The position numbers were made by a program, and so were the translations under genes. From an uncultured Acidobacteriota bacterium (GTDB lineage Bacteria > Acidobacteriota > Thermoanaerobaculia > Multivoradales > UBA5704), in NCBI GenBank assembly GCA_963700145.1, contig OY969474.1, positions 3,520,001 through 3,584,000 on the forward strand: a stretch of DNA of 64,000 nt. The letters run 5' to 3'. Under the pieces are notes generated by a model. The model was not told where the DNA came from. It worked only from the letters and a program-made list of their open reading frames with translations, and ran no database searches. Shown here in pieces: positions 53,030-59,348 of this stretch. Position 1 is the stretch's first letter; the number at the start of each line of letters is the position of its first letter.

Positions 53030-54488
53030 GGGGATGCCCCGTTCCCTGTTGAAAGCCGAAAGAGGGAAAGCGGCTCGGTTGATCATGCCACGGCCTTGGT
53101 GTTCGTCGGTTCCTCGATCGCCGCGAGCGCGAGCTCGAGAGCCCCGAGGTGCCGATGTCCCTTGACACGCCGGAAGCCAGCCTCCGCGTCACACAGCGCC
53201 AGGGCGACCCAGCGCAGCACCATGTCGCCGCCGCGCCAGCGCTTGACGTTGCGCGTCGTCGTACGGATCGAGCCGATCGTGTTCTCGATCGCGTTGGTCG
53301 AGGCGAGCAACCGGCGCAGAGCGTCGGGCAGCTTCAGCCGCAAGGCGGTGAGGGTCTCGTCGAGGCCCTCGCGCAGGCTGCCCGCGGCGCCCGCGTGGCC
53401 TGCGTGCTCGAGCCAGCGGGCAAGCTGCTCGAGGCGACGCTTGGCGAGGTCGAAGCGAGCGCTCTGGTAGGCCTCGACCATCAGGCGGTCGACCCGGGCT
53501 TGGAGCTGCTTGGGCAGGTGGTCGCGGACGTTGCGGCGCTTGTGGAGCTGGCAGCGCTGGACGTGGGTTGCGTCCCCGAAGACGGCGCGCACGGCCTTGC
53601 GCAGCCCCTTGCCGCCGTCGAGCACCGCCAAGAAGCGCGGCGGCATCGCGAGGCCTCGCTCCAACAGCTCCTGGAGCAGGCCGGTACAGAGCGCCGCGTT
53701 CTCCGTCGCGCCTTCACGCAGGCCGAGCACCCGCTTGGTCCCGTCGCGCGCGATGCCGAGTGCCACCACCAGGGTGTGGCCGGCCACCTCCAGCCCGTCG
53801 ATCATCAGGATCAGGGGCTGGAAGTCCGACAGGTCTCGGCGCAGCCACGCGCCCAGCAGACGACGCGTCCCCGCCACCAGCCGGCGCTGGACCGCACTCT
53901 TGCTCGTCGCGCGCTCCGGCACCGACTCTGCGAGCGGCTCCAAGCTCCGACCGTAGCGGCGCTGCGAGACGCCGACCAGCGCCTGCTCGATCACCCGCTC
54001 CGTGAAGGGATCTTCGTCCTGAAAGGCGCGCACCGAAGGCAAGCTCATCTCGCCACCGTCGCGTCGCCGGACGCGCGGTCGCGGCAGCGCCACCTGGCGG
54101 CCACCCAGCACGAACTCGCTCGCCGTCGAGCCCCAGCGGTACGCCTCGCGGGTCGGATTGCGCCGACGCTTCGGACCGACGACGGCCTCGACCTCGTCCG
54201 CGAGCTGCCGCCCCAGGGCCTCGACGCCCGCGGCGTGAAACAGCTCCAGCAGCCCCTGGCGGCTGGCCTCGATGCCCTCGACCATCGGCCGCAGCAGCGC
54301 TTGTAGCCCGTGGCTGATGCGCGCCGCACGGCCCCCTTGCCACACCACCCGCCTTTCTGCTCTCGTCTTCATCACGGCTCCTTGGCCCCCTGGCGGGGCC
54401 GGTTATTCGACCAACCCGATTCTCGATCAGGTGGGCCGAGGAGCCGCCTTCACCTCATTGCTCTTTCAACAGCGGGAGGGACAACCCC
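53030..54488 (-). mobile_element. IS256-family insertion sequence, copy 1 (no target-site duplication)
   Basis: Imperfect 26-bp terminal IRs GGGGTTGTCCCTCCCGCTGTTGAAAG / GGGGATGCCCCGTTCCCTGTTGAAAG; same transposase as copy 2; flanks GGTTGAGAC and CGACGTTGG differ. Confidence 0.92.
53083..54375 (-). CDS. IS256-family (Mutator-like) DDE transposase
   Basis: RPRVR, GVSQR, MIDG, VLDGGKGL, QRCQLHK.RN and STNAIE motifs. Confidence 0.93.
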   Translation of the reverse strand: MMKTRAERRVVWQGGRAARISHGLQALLRPMVEGIEASRQGLLELFHAAGVEALGRQLADEVEAVVGPKRRRNPTREAYRWGSTASEFVLGGRQVALPRPRVRRRDGGEMSLPSVRAFQDEDPFTERVIEQALVGVSQRRYGRSLEPLAESVPERATSKSAVQRRLVAGTRRLLGAWLRRDLSDFQPLILMIDGLEVAGHTLVVALGIARDGTKRVLGLREGATENAALCTGLLQELLERGLAMPPRFLAVLDGGKGLRKAVRAVFGDATHVQRCQLHKRRNVRDHLPKQLQARVDRLMVEAYQSARFDLAKRRLEQLARWLEHAGHAGAAGSLREGLDETLTALRLKLPDALRRLLASTNAIENTIGSIRTTTRNVKRWRGGDMVLRWVALALCDAEAGFRRVKGHRHLGALELALAAIEEPTNTKAVA

Positions 54489-54519
54489 CGACGTTGGTAT
54501 CGAGGACTCGGATTACCAT
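54489..54519 (-). pseudogene. 5' stub of a VapC/PIN toxin truncated by IS256
   Basis: ATG at 54519 overlaps the antitoxin 3' end and reads MVIRVLDTNV (PIN LDTNV motif) straight into the IS end. Confidence 0.7.
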
Positions 54520-54758
54520 CCGGGATCGCGATCCTTACGGACGATCTCGGCGCTATCCGCCATCGGTCCGAACGAGTCGCGGAGCCGCCGGAGGCGATTG
54601 ATGGCCTCGGCGGGCTCGTCGCCGCGCCCGAGTTCGCGGTCCAGGAGGGTTCGCGCCATCTCCGATATGCCGACTTGATGTTCCTGCGCCTCCCGCCGGA
54701 GACGCTCCACGAGAGCCTCGTCGAGCATCAGGTTCACGCGCTTGAGAGGAGAGGCCAT
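54513..54758 (-). CDS. RHH/CopG-like antitoxin (VapB-type)
   Basis: KRVNLMLDEALVERLRREA....ISEMAR RHH pattern and DSAEIVRKDRD C-terminus; upstream of the PIN stub. Confidence 0.75.
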   Translation of the reverse strand: MASPLKRVNLMLDEALVERLRREAQEHQVGISEMARTLLDRELGRGDEPAEAINRLRRLRDSFGPMADSAEIVRKDRDPGW

Positions 54759-54775: not shown

Positions 54776-54964
54776 TTACACATTGTACACACTTGGTCCG
54801 TGCTCCTGCCGGATGCGCTGACTTTCGCGATCCGCCATGACGTCACGGTGTACGACGCCGTGTTCGTCGTCCTCGCGCGGCAGCTCGGAGGCGAGCTCAT
54901 CACCGCCGACAGAGTGCTCTGGGACAAACTCGCCGGTGACTGCCCCTGGGTGAGGAAGCTGTAG
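54776..54964 (+). pseudogene. 3' half of a second VapC/PIN gene
   Basis: Frame ...LLPDALTFAIRHDVTVYDAVFVVLARQLGGELITADRVLWDKL...* carries the PIN YDA and LITAD motifs; no start or N-terminal half. Confidence 0.7.
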
Positions 54965-54985: not shown

Positions 54986-55654
54986 TCACGTCTCCCAGAA
55001 CTGATCGCGCAGCCCGATGCGGTCGAAGATCTGCCGGATCTCGGCGCCCATCGGGCGGCGCGCTTCGGGGGTGAGGCGACTCGCGTACCAGGCTTGGGCC
55101 AGCTCCCAGAGCTGGTCGAGGGAGACGAGCGGCCGCCGCGGCAGGTTGCGCTGCCGGCACCAGCGCTCGACGTGCTCTTCCGACCGGAAGAGGAGCATCG
55201 TGCTTCAGGTGTAGGCGATGTCGTCCCACCACTGCTTGGCGGGGACGGCGAAGTGGGCGACGCACGGCTCGGGCTCCGGCGCGCCGCCGCGCACCCGCAG
55301 CCCGATCGGCTCGCCGCAGCAGGCGCAGCTCGCCTCGACGTCGGCGTCCCGGTGCAGCGCCGCCGCGATCCCGAGCGCGTCCCAGACGCAGTTGCCGAAG
55401 TAGGAGCGCCCGCCCGAGCGCACCAGAAACGTCGTCGGCACCGCCGAGAACGGCGGCGCCATGACGATCTCCCCCGTCTCCGGCGCCAACGCCAGGAGCC
55501 GCCGCCCGTTCAGCCGCCGAAACGCCTCCAGCACCTCGGAGGCCCCGCACCCGAGCCGCCCCGCCACCTCCGCCGCTCGCGACGGGCGGCCGCTCTCGGC
55601 GGTGGTGCGGTAGACGTCGAGTTGGACTCTAGGGTCGAGGGTCTCGGGGTCCAT
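54986..55654 (-). CDS. MerB-like organomercurial/organometallic lyase, probable selenoprotein (UGA at 55205-55207 read as Sec)
   Basis: ORFs 55205..55654 and 54986..55198 are in frame, joined by ACC-TGA-AGC-ACG-ATG; NCVWDALG (MerB Cys/Asp motif), CACCGEPI, WDDIAYT-U-STMLLFRSEEHV; hairpin directly downstream of the UGA. Confidence 0.8.
55163..55204 (-). promoter_or_regulatory. Putative bacterial SECIS element
   Basis: After the UGA: lower stem CGAUG/CGUCG, upper stem CUCUUCC/GGAAGAG, apical loop GGUC starting 20 nt downstream. Confidence 0.7.
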
Positions 55655-55715
55655 GGCGGAATCCTCGCACGGTCCGCCGCTAGGACGCGGCTGTTGCTAG
55701 GATCGCCACGAAGCC

Positions 55716-56339
55716 ATGGTCGAGATCCTGCCGATCGAGCGCGAGGAAGCCTTCTGGTCCGGCGTCGAGAACGCCAAGAGGTTCTTCATGGGCGAAGCCG
55801 ACGTGCAAAGGGCCCTGGAGCGGTTGGCGCGCCTGCTCGACGAGAAGGAAATCCCCTACGCCGTCATCGGCGCCATGGCGCTCAACGAGTGGGGCTACCG
55901 GCGGGTGACCGTTGACGTCGATGTCCTGCTGGCCCCCGAGGGGCTGAGCGCCCTCAAGGCCGAGGTTCTAGGCCGCGGCTACCTCGAGAAGTTCCCGGGG
56001 AGCCGCGGCCTGCGGGACACCGAAGCCGGCGTCAACGTCGACGTCGTCCTCGCCGGCGAGTACCCGGGGGACGGCAAGCCGAAGCCGGTCGTTTTTCCCG
56101 ACCCGGCGCAAGCCGCCGTCCGCGGCCGACGCGTGGCGCTCCTGCCCCTGCCGAAGCTCATCGAGCTCAAGCTGGCGTCAGGCCTGAGCGCGCCGCACCG
56201 CCTGAAGGACCTCGCCGACGTCCTGGAGCTCATCCGGCAGCTCGCCCTTCCCCGCGAAATGGCCGAGTCCCTCGACCCCTCGGTGCGGGCCAAGTACGAG
56301 GAGCTCTGGCAGGCGGCACAGACGCCGGAACGGGAGTGA
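55716..56339 (+). CDS. Pol-beta-superfamily nucleotidyltransferase (AbiEii/DUF6036-like)
   Basis: YAVIGAMAL..WGY.RVTVDVDVLL, VNVDVV and LIELKL....R.KDLADV motifs. Confidence 0.75.
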   Translation: MVEILPIEREEAFWSGVENAKRFFMGEADVQRALERLARLLDEKEIPYAVIGAMALNEWGYRRVTVDVDVLLAPEGLSALKAEVLGRGYLEKFPGSRGLRDTEAGVNVDVVLAGEYPGDGKPKPVVFPDPAQAAVRGRRVALLPLPKLIELKLASGLSAPHRLKDLADVLELIRQLALPREMAESLDPSVRAKYEELWQAAQTPERE

Positions 56340-56344
56340 GCTCT

Positions 56345-56590
56345 ATGCCGACCTTGCAGCAGACCATCAAGGCAGTCGTCCGGCCCGGAGAGGACTCCGG
56401 CTACGTCGCCGAATGCGTCGAGATCGCCGTCGTCACGCAAGGCCGCACCCTCGACGAGACCGTCGCGAATCTGCGCGAGGCCGTGGGCCTGCACCTCGAG
56501 GGCGAGGACCCGGCAAGCTTCGGCCTGCGCCCGAACCCCACTTTGATCCTCACCCTGGAGCTCGAGCCGTCGCATGCCCGGGCTTCGTAG
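56345..56590 (+). CDS. hicB: HicB-family antitoxin (short form)
   Basis: GYVAECVEI.VVTQGRTLDE.VANLREAV.LHLE motif. Confidence 0.88.
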   Translation: MPTLQQTIKAVVRPGEDSGYVAECVEIAVVTQGRTLDETVANLREAVGLHLEGEDPASFGLRPNPTLILTLELEPSHARAS

Positions 56591-56813
56591 GCTTTCGGGC
56601 CGCGAAGTCGTTTCAACCCTTCAGCGCTTCGGGTTCCAACCCGTCTCCCAACGGGGCAGCCACATCAAGCTGCAACGGGAAACGCAGTCCGGGCGCCAGA
56701 CCCTGACGGTGCCGGCCCACAGCGAGCTCGATTCAGGGACCTTGCGCGCCATCTACCGCCAGGCGAGCCGCTTCGTTCCCGAGGACGATTTGCGCCCCCT
56801 CTTCTACGCCTGA
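56574..56813 (+). CDS. hicA: HicA-family toxin
   Basis: LSGREVV..LQRFGF..VSQRGSHIKL...TVPAH.EL..GTLRAI motif. Confidence 0.9.
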   Translation: MPGLRRLSGREVVSTLQRFGFQPVSQRGSHIKLQRETQSGRQTLTVPAHSELDSGTLRAIYRQASRFVPEDDLRPLFYA

Positions 56814-57101: not shown

Positions 57102-57340
57102 CGCCACAAATCGTTCCGAGAGAAGGCGTTACGGGCGGCTACTCCTCCGAGCGGTCTTCCGGGCCGCCCACCGGAATGTCCTCCGGCTGGATCCACTCGA
57201 CCCGCCCGTCCCGCCACACCGCGATAGGGTTCCCCGCCTGCTTGTGCCGCAGCAGCGCCTCGCGCACGGACCTCGCAAGGATCTCTTGGATGCGGTAGGG
57301 ATCAAAGATCCTCTCAACTTCGTCGGGATCTACGTCGTTG

Positions 57341-58799
57341 GGGGTTGTCCCTCCCGCTGTTGAAAGAGCAATGAGGTGAAGGCGGCTCCTCGGCCCACCT
57401 GATCGAGAATCGGGTTGGTCGAATAACCGGCCCCGCCAGGGGGCCAAGGAGCCGTGATGAAGACGAGAGCAGAAAGGCGGGTGGTGTGGCAAGGGGGCCG
57501 TGCGGCGCGCATCAGCCACGGGCTACAAGCGCTGCTGCGGCCGATGGTCGAGGGCATCGAGGCCAGCCGCCAGGGGCTGCTGGAGCTGTTTCACGCCGCG
57601 GGCGTCGAGGCCCTGGGGCGGCAGCTCGCGGACGAGGTCGAGGCCGTCGTCGGTCCGAAGCGTCGGCGCAATCCGACCCGCGAGGCGTACCGCTGGGGCT
57701 CGACGGCGAGCGAGTTCGTGCTGGGTGGCCGCCAGGTGGCGCTGCCGCGACCGCGCGTCCGGCGACGCGACGGTGGCGAGATGAGCTTGCCTTCGGTGCG
57801 CGCCTTTCAGGACGAAGATCCCTTCACGGAGCGGGTGATCGAGCAGGCGCTGGTCGGCGTCTCGCAGCGCCGCTACGGTCGGAGCTTGGAGCCGCTCGCA
57901 GAGTCGGTGCCGGAGCGCGCGACGAGCAAGAGTGCGGTCCAGCGCCGGCTGGTGGCGGGGACGCGTCGTCTGCTGGGCGCGTGGCTGCGCCGAGACCTGT
58001 CGGACTTCCAGCCCCTGATCCTGATGATCGACGGGCTGGAGGTGGCCGGCCACACCCTGGTGGTGGCACTCGGCATCGCGCGCGACGGGACCAAGCGGGT
58101 GCTCGGCCTGCGTGAAGGCGCGACGGAGAACGCGGCGCTCTGTACCGGCCTGCTCCAGGAGCTGTTGGAGCGAGGCCTCGCGATGCCGCCGCGCTTCTTG
58201 GCGGTGCTCGACGGCGGCAAGGGGCTGCGCAAGGCCGTGCGCGCCGTCTTCGGGGACGCAACCCACGTCCAGCGCTGCCAGCTCCACAAGCGCCGCAACG
58301 TCCGCGACCACCTGCCCAAGCAGCTCCAAGCCCGGGTCGACCGCCTGATGGTCGAGGCCTACCAGAGCGCTCGCTTCGACCTCGCCAAGCGTCGCCTCGA
58401 GCAGCTTGCCCGCTGGCTCGAGCACGCAGGCCACGCGGGCGCCGCGGGCAGCCTGCGCGAGGGCCTCGACGAGACCCTCACCGCCTTGCGGCTGAAGCTG
58501 CCCGACGCTCTGCGCCGGTTGCTCGCCTCGACCAACGCGATCGAGAACACGATCGGCTCGATCCGTACGACGACGCGCAACGTCAAGCGCTGGCGCGGCG
58601 GCGACATGGTGCTGCGCTGGGTCGCCCTGGCGCTGTGTGACGCGGAGGCTGGCTTCCGGCGTGTCAAGGGACATCGGCACCTCGGGGCTCTCGAGCTCGC
58701 GCTCGCGGCGATCGAGGAACCGACGAACACCAAGGCCGTGGCATGATCAACCGAGCCGCTTTCCCTCTTTCGGCTTTCAACAGGGAACGGGGCATCCCC
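57341..58799 (+). mobile_element. IS256-family insertion sequence, copy 2, with 9-bp target-site duplication
   Basis: Same terminal IRs as copy 1; ACGTCGTTG duplicated at 57332-57340 and 58800-58808. Confidence 0.95.
57454..58746 (+). CDS. IS256-family DDE transposase
   Basis: Translation identical to 53083..54375. Confidence 0.93.
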   Translation: MMKTRAERRVVWQGGRAARISHGLQALLRPMVEGIEASRQGLLELFHAAGVEALGRQLADEVEAVVGPKRRRNPTREAYRWGSTASEFVLGGRQVALPRPRVRRRDGGEMSLPSVRAFQDEDPFTERVIEQALVGVSQRRYGRSLEPLAESVPERATSKSAVQRRLVAGTRRLLGAWLRRDLSDFQPLILMIDGLEVAGHTLVVALGIARDGTKRVLGLREGATENAALCTGLLQELLERGLAMPPRFLAVLDGGKGLRKAVRAVFGDATHVQRCQLHKRRNVRDHLPKQLQARVDRLMVEAYQSARFDLAKRRLEQLARWLEHAGHAGAAGSLREGLDETLTALRLKLPDALRRLLASTNAIENTIGSIRTTTRNVKRWRGGDMVLRWVALALCDAEAGFRRVKGHRHLGALELALAAIEEPTNTKAVA

Positions 58800-59348
58800 A
58801 CGTCGTTGTCGCGCCCCGCCGGAGCGTGCTCGCCACCCTTCTCCTGCGGTCCAGCAAGCTCTTGCTGTGCCCGGGCCAAGGCCTCGTCCCAGACCTGTTG
58901 GTCTCCTACCTCCTCGAGGATCATGACCGCAATCGCATCTTGGTCTGCGGGTGGAAGCTTCTCTGCGGCCTGCAGTGCCTGCTGCAGAAGAGGAGTCATT
59001 GGCCGCCAGAATACAGCCTCAATGCCCCAGGAGGGCAGCACCTATCTCTGCCGTCCACCAGTCCCGAGTCTGCCGATACGGTCTTCCGGAGTGGAGACCA
59101 ATGACTTCGCGCCATTTGGTACTCTGGAAACAACGATGCGTAAGAAGGCCTCTGCGGCAGTGGAACCGAAGCCGCCGTGAGACCGTTCGCGACGCTCTTC
59201 TTGCGCAGCCTGTCGCCCCGGAATGGCCGGTCGTCCCAACTGCCACCGCAGCCTTGGCGCGACTTGGTAGCCAATCTGTGCTTCTGCTCCAACCCTGCTC
59301 GAGCGCACTGCGACCTAATCCTGTTTCACGAGAAGAGGGAGTGGCAAG

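Follow-up and report, generated by a model that had tools for sequence, protein, structure and literature searches.

This study concerns a gene split by an in-frame UGA codon on the minus strand of a 64,000-nucleotide stretch (the window) of contig OY969474.1, from the genome of an uncultured Acidobacteriota bacterium. We put the probability at roughly 85% that positions 54989..55654 form a single gene whose product is a selenoprotein of 222 residues in the MerB (alkylmercury lyase) superfamily, with a Cys/Asp/Sec active site and a mechanism that would be that of a lyase. Comparison with related sequences indicates that the UGA is very probably recoded as selenocysteine (Sec). The selenoprotein reading is based upon a single reading frame, an alignment column that holds Sec or Cys, a conserved selenocysteine insertion sequence (SECIS), the presence of Sec machinery, and MerB fold and active-site alignment. 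This stand-alone gene belongs to a large clade spread over many phyla of soils and sediments, and annotation systematically gives its product as ~146-153 aa.

The UGA codon and its downstream hairpin

Two open reading frames (ORFs) had been listed at this place, 55205..55654 (149 aa) and 54986..55198 (70 aa), and an earlier note on the sequence proposed that they are one frame split by TGA alone. Translation bears this out, as the joined frame comprises 222 sense codons, its sole internal stop is the TGA at codon 150 (window 55207-55205) and no frameshift is involved. The residues around the site read ...WWDDIAYT-U-STMLLFRSEEHV... and the matching aligned end of the gene in relatives is closed by TGA, TAG or TAA.

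When 401 genomes of the phylum were searched in six frames, 39 gave matches, and 30 loci were read through the stop for comparison. Exactly one in-frame TGA was present, at the same aligned site, in 28 of these 30 loci at protein identities down to 35%, and the remaining two (L044 and L048) encode Cys at the site (YTCSTMLLF... and YTCSVMLLF...). Two loci, L028 and L033, come from unpublished genomes, and omitting both gives a UGA count of 26/28. The residue preceding Sec in the 28 UGA forms is Thr, Asn or Ser, with Thr in the window gene.

Relatives were also collected across phyla by scanning a single genome for each species with a sequence pattern, which returned at least 595 matching stretches; as NC[AIV]WD was part of the pattern, the CxxD form was selected for in this set. 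The best 80 of these relatives, from at least ten phyla, carried TGA at the site without exception (80/80). The labels of their metagenome-assembled genomes (MAGs) comprised Acidobacteriota (Thermoanaerobaculia, Holophagales, Vicinamibacterales and Terriglobia), Gemmatimonadota, Chloroflexota, Eisenbacteria, Verrucomicrobiota, Planctomycetota, Actinomycetota, Armatimonadetes, Caldithrix and Omnitrophota.

When 1.84 billion representative proteins were searched with a profile, 5056 matched at E<=1e-3, 426 of them at E<=1e-30, and the best 150 were classified. Full-length proteins accounted for 74 and proteins ending just before the site for 71, with four partial sequences containing Cys and one left unclassed; the 71 shortened representatives are what gene callers make of Sec genes. 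Cys occupied the site in 68 of the 74 full-length representatives, the others having W (two) or A, Y, H or R (one each), so the expectation of the earlier note that Cys would stand opposite the UGA agrees with both this set and the two Cys loci of the phylum. In a word-based protein search, most close matches were 143-160 aa long, some being named 'organomercurial lyase [Thermoanaerobaculia bacterium]', and the full-length matches had C (P0098), G (P0005) or W (P0009) at the site.

The window protein was placed by FastTree, the only tree method used, within a 72-row group made up entirely of Sec forms (support 99). Sec and Cys interchange nine times over this tree, with only one change forced by well-supported branches. 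The nearest relatives, among L053-L132, come from MAGs with the labels Calditrichota, Chloroflexota (Promineifilum), Acidobacteriota and Planctomycetota. The placements suggest that the gene may have been transferred between phyla.

Downstream of the UGA lies a hairpin with an upper stem of CUCUUCC/GGAAGAG and a GGUC loop (Table 1). There are 19 nt between the UGA and the loop, which therefore begins at nt 20, and the minimum free energy (MFE) is -9.1 kcal/mol for the upper part and -14.1 with the lower stem. The earlier note had described both stems as one SECIS-like structure; the upper stem and loop are present and conserved, whereas the lower stem, although present in the window, is paired in only 67.4% of cells across relatives and was rejected as a conserved part of the SECIS.

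RNAalifold, applied to the 28 UGA-form sequences of the phylum, predicts exactly the 7-bp helix. Within these sequences 95.2% of helix cells are paired, compared to 85.3 +/- 1.2% in shuffled data (0/500 reach the observed value), and pairing falls to 45-61% when the partner strand is slid. Compensatory changes, with both sides altered, were seen at four of the seven pairs (17 cells). Across the best-80 set, 546/560 helix cells are paired and the loop is GGUC in 78/80; the other two loci have the closing C-G changed to A-U together with an altered loop, and the same change occurs in phylum locus L036. The SECIS sequence is unusually uniform: UUCCGGUCGGAA.

Codon usage was examined in 27 UGA forms, including the two unpublished genomes, over 36 conserved columns of residues with at least fourfold degeneracy. 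The share of the commonest codon was 0.35-0.64 in 34/36 columns, the exceptions being Arg157 (CGG in 26/27) and Ser158 (UCG in 25/25), whose codons spell the hairpin loop; the codon of Phe156 was UUC in 27/27. The frozen synonymous codons and the compensatory changes together speak for selection on an RNA hairpin with the geometry of a SECIS. The Cys-form genes L044 and L048 code for comparable peptides but use different codons, and the hairpin is missing from both. Among UGA homologues the structure is kept, as pair counts, RNAalifold and the best-80 set agree; the earlier note had named a lack of such conservation as a finding that would speak against its proposal. The bacterial SECIS (bSECIS) model, as given in the Fig. 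2 legend of PMC13188914, describes a loop of 3-9 nt, a stem of 4-16 bp, a G in the first two loop positions, a distance of 16-37 nt from the UGA and an MFE <= -7.5 kcal/mol. The window hairpin, with its 4-nt loop, 7 bp, GG start, 19 nt and -9.1 kcal/mol, falls within every one of these quoted values.

The host genome (5.46 Mb, single contig, 95.4% complete) contains the complete set of selA, selB, selC and selD, the presence of which the earlier note had made a test of its proposal. Scores were 339.5 bits for selD, 442.9 bits for selA, 361.8 bits for selB and 70.3 bits for tRNA-Sec, all above curated cut-offs, and ARAGORN called the last as tRNA-SeC with anticodon tca. The selD gene (3788741-3789661) contains a single in-frame TGA, in the context TTGGUAAKVGPGD, and so is a selenoprotein gene in its own right. 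Across the phylum, 311/401 genomes have a selA match, 297 of them above the cut-off, and a match is present in all 28 genomes with a UGA form, a count read by hand from the table and made over genomes that are related rather than independent. We propose that SelB and Sec-tRNA(Sec), recruited by the 7-bp GGUC hairpin that lies within the coding sequence 19 nt downstream, would insert selenocysteine at the UGA of codon 150.

MerB fold and the putative Cys/Asp/Sec site

The Pfam MerB family (PF03243) matched the read-through protein with an E value of 1.8e-31 and 109.2 bits (gathering threshold 27). This match runs unbroken across the UGA, residues 69-190 corresponding to positions 1-125 of the 126 in the profile; searched separately, the two halves score 65.4 and 22.9 bits and each covers its own part of the profile. 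The top sequence matches in the PDB were MerB2 5c17 (E 4.5e-13), followed by MerB 3f2g, 3fn8 and 1s6l.

Residue 150 is aligned with the Cys of 'GGTCKQIHYF' in MerB2 5c17 and with that of 'SFCSHVHFF' in MerB 3f2g. The latter is Cys159, because 3f2g is titled a C160S mutant. NCVWD, containing Cys89 and Asp92, is aligned with 'AWCALD', the holder of MerB Cys96 and Asp99; the MerB residue numbers Cys96, Asp99 and Cys159 are those used by Haft & Gwadz (bioRxiv 10.1101/2022.07.06.499078). On these alignments, Cys89/Asp92/Sec150 is the predicted counterpart of the MerB triad Cys96/Asp99/Cys159, with Sec replacing Cys159. Two proposals of the earlier note, that NCVWD is the Cys-x-x-Asp motif of MerB and that Sec takes the place of the distal Cys, are both in keeping with this, the second for the solved MerB and for the matching Cys of MerB2.

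An AlphaFold2 model of the read-through protein, built from an alignment of 27 read-through relatives, had a predicted local distance difference test score (pLDDT) of 96.2 and a predicted template modelling score (pTM) of 0.92, without any low-confidence segment. All 11 PDB matches to this model at E<=1e-3 were MerB or MerB2, with template modelling (TM) scores of 0.50-0.70, and the best was again MerB2 5c17 (E 2.9e-12, TM 0.66/0.70). Weak matches between the N-terminal part and winged-helix metal regulators appeared from rank 12 onward (E ~0.1-0.4).

Cys89, Trp189 and Trp220 are invariant in the alignment of relatives. Asp is kept at position 92 in 25/25 aligned Sec forms and in 71/71 truncated database forms, compared to Cys forms in which the same position gives CxxD in 24/68 and CxxC in 34/68. 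The choice between Sec and Cys and the third active-site ligand seem to be coupled, the Sec forms scored being all CxxD and Cys forms often CxxC. The occurrence of CxxD throughout the Sec forms scored argues that these have retained acid-base catalysis and do more than bind metal.

By analogy with MerB, the metal of an organometal substrate would be held between the sulfur of Cys89 and the selenium of Sec150, and Asp92 would supply a proton to the leaving carbon in a MerB-type protonolysis of the metal-carbon bond. A selenolate should bind soft metals more tightly than a thiolate and stay deprotonated at neutral pH. Sec150 would be expected to capture the metal more tightly or faster than a thiolate. 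The model for these steps is the general picture of MerB chemistry, in line with bioRxiv 10.1101/2022.07.06.499078, in which two thiol ligands bind the metal and an Asp protonates the carbon. For the substrate, we see roughly even odds between an organomercurial such as methylmercury and another organometal or organometalloid.

Genomic neighbourhood and rival explanations

The gene sits outside any mer operon and among toxin-antitoxin genes, as the earlier note had said, and its other neighbours in the window are insertion sequence (IS) copies. A 1464-nt IS of the Mutator family (PF00872) is present in two inverted copies, at 53030-54493 and 57336-58799, which bracket a 2842-nt segment holding the selenoprotein gene and the toxin-antitoxin genes. 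The copies were reported as 100% complementary; by eye, they differ at one base near their inner ends. A composite transposon was considered and rejected, as the right copy has its own 8-bp direct repeat, ACGTCGTT, at 57332-57339 and 58800-58807, which suggests that it is an independent insertion. No such repeat was seen flanking the left copy. The 54-aa PIN fragment beside the inner end of the left copy may be a remnant. For the 207-aa ORF that diverges from the selenoprotein gene, the nearest ESM-Atlas clusters were partly AbiEii/nucleotidyltransferase (score 0.99), a lead only, since only 15% of the proteins in the top cluster carry this family.

Table 1. Positions of the selenoprotein gene, its parts and the neighbouring genes in the window
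Feature	Position	Strand	Basis or remark
Read-through coding sequence, MerB-like selenoprotein (predicted)	54989..55654	minus	222 codons; single frame, PF03243 match, AlphaFold2 model
N-terminal winged-helix-like part	residues ~1-60	minus	part of the read-through protein
MerB core	residues 69-190	minus	PF03243 match
Family-specific C-terminal helix	residues ~191-222	minus	part of the read-through protein
Shine-Dalgarno-like GAGGA, 7 nt ahead of ATG 55654-55652	55662..55666	minus	by-eye reading of the upstream sequence
Cys89 codon (= MerB Cys96)	55388..55390	minus	MerB alignment; coordinate counted from the start codon at 55654
Asp92 codon (= MerB Asp99, the MerB proton donor)	55379..55381	minus	MerB alignment
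In-frame UGA, codon 150, predicted to be read as selenocysteine; counterpart of MerB Cys159	55205..55207	minus	translation and homologue alignments
Extended hairpin with lower stem CGAUG/CGUCG (55200-55196 with 55172-55168)	55168..55200	minus	folding; weakly conserved
SECIS core: 7-bp stem (55192-55186 with 55181-55175), GGUC loop 55185-55182	55175..55192	minus	folding and comparative data
Terminal stop TGA of the read-through gene	54986..54988	minus	translation; relatives stop at the same aligned place
Ribbon-helix-helix antitoxin-like ORF	54513-54758	minus	domain match
54-aa ORF, C-terminal third of PIN (profile 79-114 of 120)	54800-54964	plus	domain match
207-aa ORF divergent from the selenoprotein gene	55716-56339	plus	no Pfam or NCBIfam match
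HicB-like ORF	56336-56590	plus	weak DUF7387 match
HicA toxin ORF	56574-56813	plus	domain match

Several observations weigh against the reading of this gene as a Sec-dependent lyase. In a few full-length homologues the site is occupied by W, A, Y, H, R or G, which indicates that the residue is not universally required; the earlier note had named a non-Cys residue there as a finding that would speak against its proposal, and such residues do occur, although in a small minority only. These relatives (P0127, P0134, P0141, P0158, P0167, P0229, P0005 and P0009) may be decayed or repurposed copies. Cys89 is also lost in several of them, for example P0134, P0141 and P0005, and the W codon UGG is one step from UGA. 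The fold of the single window sequence is not unusual (z = -1.33 over 71 nt, with 19/200 shuffles as stable), and because single-sequence folding is uninformative the case for the hairpin rests on the comparative data. An Rfam scan of 55100-55300 at E<=10 returned no SECIS family, and the one match obtained, Actino-ugpB at 13.8 bits, is irrelevant. The window copy of the gene could, in addition, be a passenger between the IS copies.

The lyase mechanism faces further objections. NCBIfam equivalog cut-offs for MerB were missed, with 47.9 against 193 for PRK13239/NF009710 and 31.3 against 200 for lyase_MerB/NF033555. A survey of 28 related loci with flanks of +/-1.5 kb, in which 88 ORFs were called by a greedy length rule that may miss small or overlapping genes, included no mer gene among those ORFs and no neighbour recurring beyond close kin. 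No MerA above the curated cut-off was detected in the whole genome, the two best MerA-like genes being a PRK06370-type FAD (flavin adenine dinucleotide) oxidoreductase and a lipoamide dehydrogenase. Without MerA or another mer partner there is no obvious acceptor for Hg(II) held on Se and S, and product release is thus the weak point of the lyase reading.

These objections lend some weight to a MerB-fold selenoprotein that cleaves no carbon-metal bond, its site serving to bind or sense soft metals (Hg, Cu, Cd or similar) or Se/S species, with the protein acting as a scavenger, chaperone or redox protein. Such a role would fit a gene with no mer operon, no conserved neighbour and scores under the MerB equivalog cut-offs, and, according to bioRxiv 10.1101/2022.07.06.499078, further metals are bound by MerB, and a single change in its active site turns it into a copper-binding protein. 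The CxxC of 34/68 Cys-form relatives likewise looks more like a site for metal binding than one for acid-base catalysis, and the N-terminal part weakly resembles winged-helix metal regulators, although MerB shares the same N-terminal domain. The Asp equivalent to the MerB proton donor is nevertheless kept in all Sec forms scored (25/25 and 71/71) and the full catalytic triad aligns with that of MerB, so we regard a purely non-lyase function as unlikely, while giving it serious consideration.

Two other explanations would dispense with Sec altogether. If the UGA were a true stop, the 149-aa protein and a 70-aa restart protein could act as a split MerB, or a near-cognate tRNA (Trp, Cys or Arg) could leak through the codon, and the ~146-153-aa products of ORF callers and public annotation would be as expected. 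An AUG is found at codon 153 in 22/27 UGA forms, but the other five have Ile (AUC), so the restart codon is not conserved; similarly, Trp is seen at the site in two full-length representatives and P0009, whereas the usual alternative residue is Cys (68/74). A SECIS-like hairpin under selection, with frozen codons and compensatory changes, that is gone where the codon is UGC, and selA in every carrier genome, also oppose termination or leakage, which we judge very improbable. A pseudogene, a MerB-like gene in mobile, IS-rich surroundings that lost its function through a nonsense mutation, would suit a position between two near-identical IS copies and next to a truncated PIN fragment. The same UGA, followed by an open and conserved frame, is however found in 28/30 and 80/80 loci, in many phyla and down to 35% identity, there is no other stop or frameshift, and the model of the read-through protein reaches a pLDDT of 96.2. 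By these comparative data the pseudogene explanation is already contradicted, and its probability is negligible.

Significance and comparison with known systems

A MerB-like selenoprotein gene of this kind has consequences for annotation, as the gene is cut at the UGA in at least 595 matching stretches (one genome per species) and in 71 of the best 150 representatives. No curated NCBIfam model covers the window protein, and pipelines therefore keep yielding half-proteins named "organomercurial lyase". The family offers Sec at a metal-binding Cys, a uniform SECIS and many natural Cys counterparts for comparison. Demethylation outside mer operons also gains a testable candidate in a stand-alone MerB-like enzyme with a Cys/Asp/Sec site that occurs in abundant soil phyla. 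Tentatively, this large uncurated family of stand-alone Sec MerB-like enzymes, with the window gene as its founding example, might represent a mer-independent, high-affinity demethylase of soils and sediments, acting on methylmercury or another organometal, which we consider possible, if doubtful. Should that be true, surveys based on merB would overlook the activity, since gene callers always render the gene as a truncated fragment. The release of product from a Se-Hg-S site in the absence of MerA would then be an interesting mechanistic question.

The closest published counterpart is SaoL (NF040728), which bioRxiv 10.1101/2022.07.06.499078 describes as the selenoprotein of the SAO locus, a MerB-like organometallic lyase. 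The window protein resembles SaoL in belonging to the MerB superfamily (PF03243), in having Sec at the position of MerB Cys159 and in its Cys and Asp equivalents of Cys96 and Asp99; database entries for both are typically truncated at the UGA, and for SaoL, too, the substrate is uncertain. The two differ in motif, as SaoL has a Cys-Sec (CU) dipeptide ~50 residues from its C-terminus, compared to T-U in the window protein, where 72 residues follow Sec. Against a cut-off of 140, the window protein obtains 40.7-41.1 bits with the SaoL model, which covers residues 34-124 only. They differ also in context. By the same account, SaoL marks a nine-gene SAO locus (SaoB, SaoP, SaoX, SaoC, SaoT, SaoE and others) found in anaerobes only, whereas the window gene has no SAO neighbours in the window and no conserved neighbours in the 28 related loci. 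A search of the genome for SaoB gave no match, but the control of the same search matched no control genome, which makes the genome-wide absence weak evidence. The model score, the missing CU dipeptide and the missing SAO locus together rule out that the window gene is SaoL. The statement of the earlier note that Sec-containing MerB-like proteins have been reported in other bacteria is therefore right in that SaoL is published, but the window gene is not an instance of it.

The taxonomic range differs as well. The strings Acidobacteri-, Gemmatimonad- and Chloroflex- are absent from the text of bioRxiv 10.1101/2022.07.06.499078, and carriers of the window gene include phyla outside those named in that paper. 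SaoL is the only MerB-family selenoprotein listed in the consulted parts of the reviews PMC9312934 (2022) and PMC13188914 (2026), the latter carrying an 'alkylmercury lyase MerB-like' selenoprotein entry. A full-text search of the library found no paper joining merB, Acidobacteriota and selenocysteine, and an earlier listing of the clade in a supplementary table is possible. For selenium biology, our study would add a broad clade to the MerB-type selenoproteins, beyond the anaerobes that carry SaoL.

Among characterized proteins, the organomercurial lyase MerB of plasmid R831b (3f0o, 3f0p, 3f2f and 1s6l) has the same fold as the window protein (TM 0.50-0.69) and an aligned Cys96/Asp99/Cys159 triad. 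At ~22% identity, however, the window protein is distinguished by Sec in place of Cys159, without the adjacent Cys160, and by ~30 extra C-terminal residues that include the invariant Trp189 and Trp220, and its gene has neither a mer operon nor a MerA partner. MerB2 5c17, titled 'mercury-bound form of MerB2', is the best match by both sequence and structure, at 24% identity and with a distal Cys rather than Sec. The window protein was rejected as a canonical MerB, as its NCBIfam equivalog scores are far under the cut-offs. Taken together, these comparisons place the window gene alongside SaoL as the same idea, Sec at the position of MerB Cys159, realized in a different clade, with a different motif, genomic context and taxonomic range.

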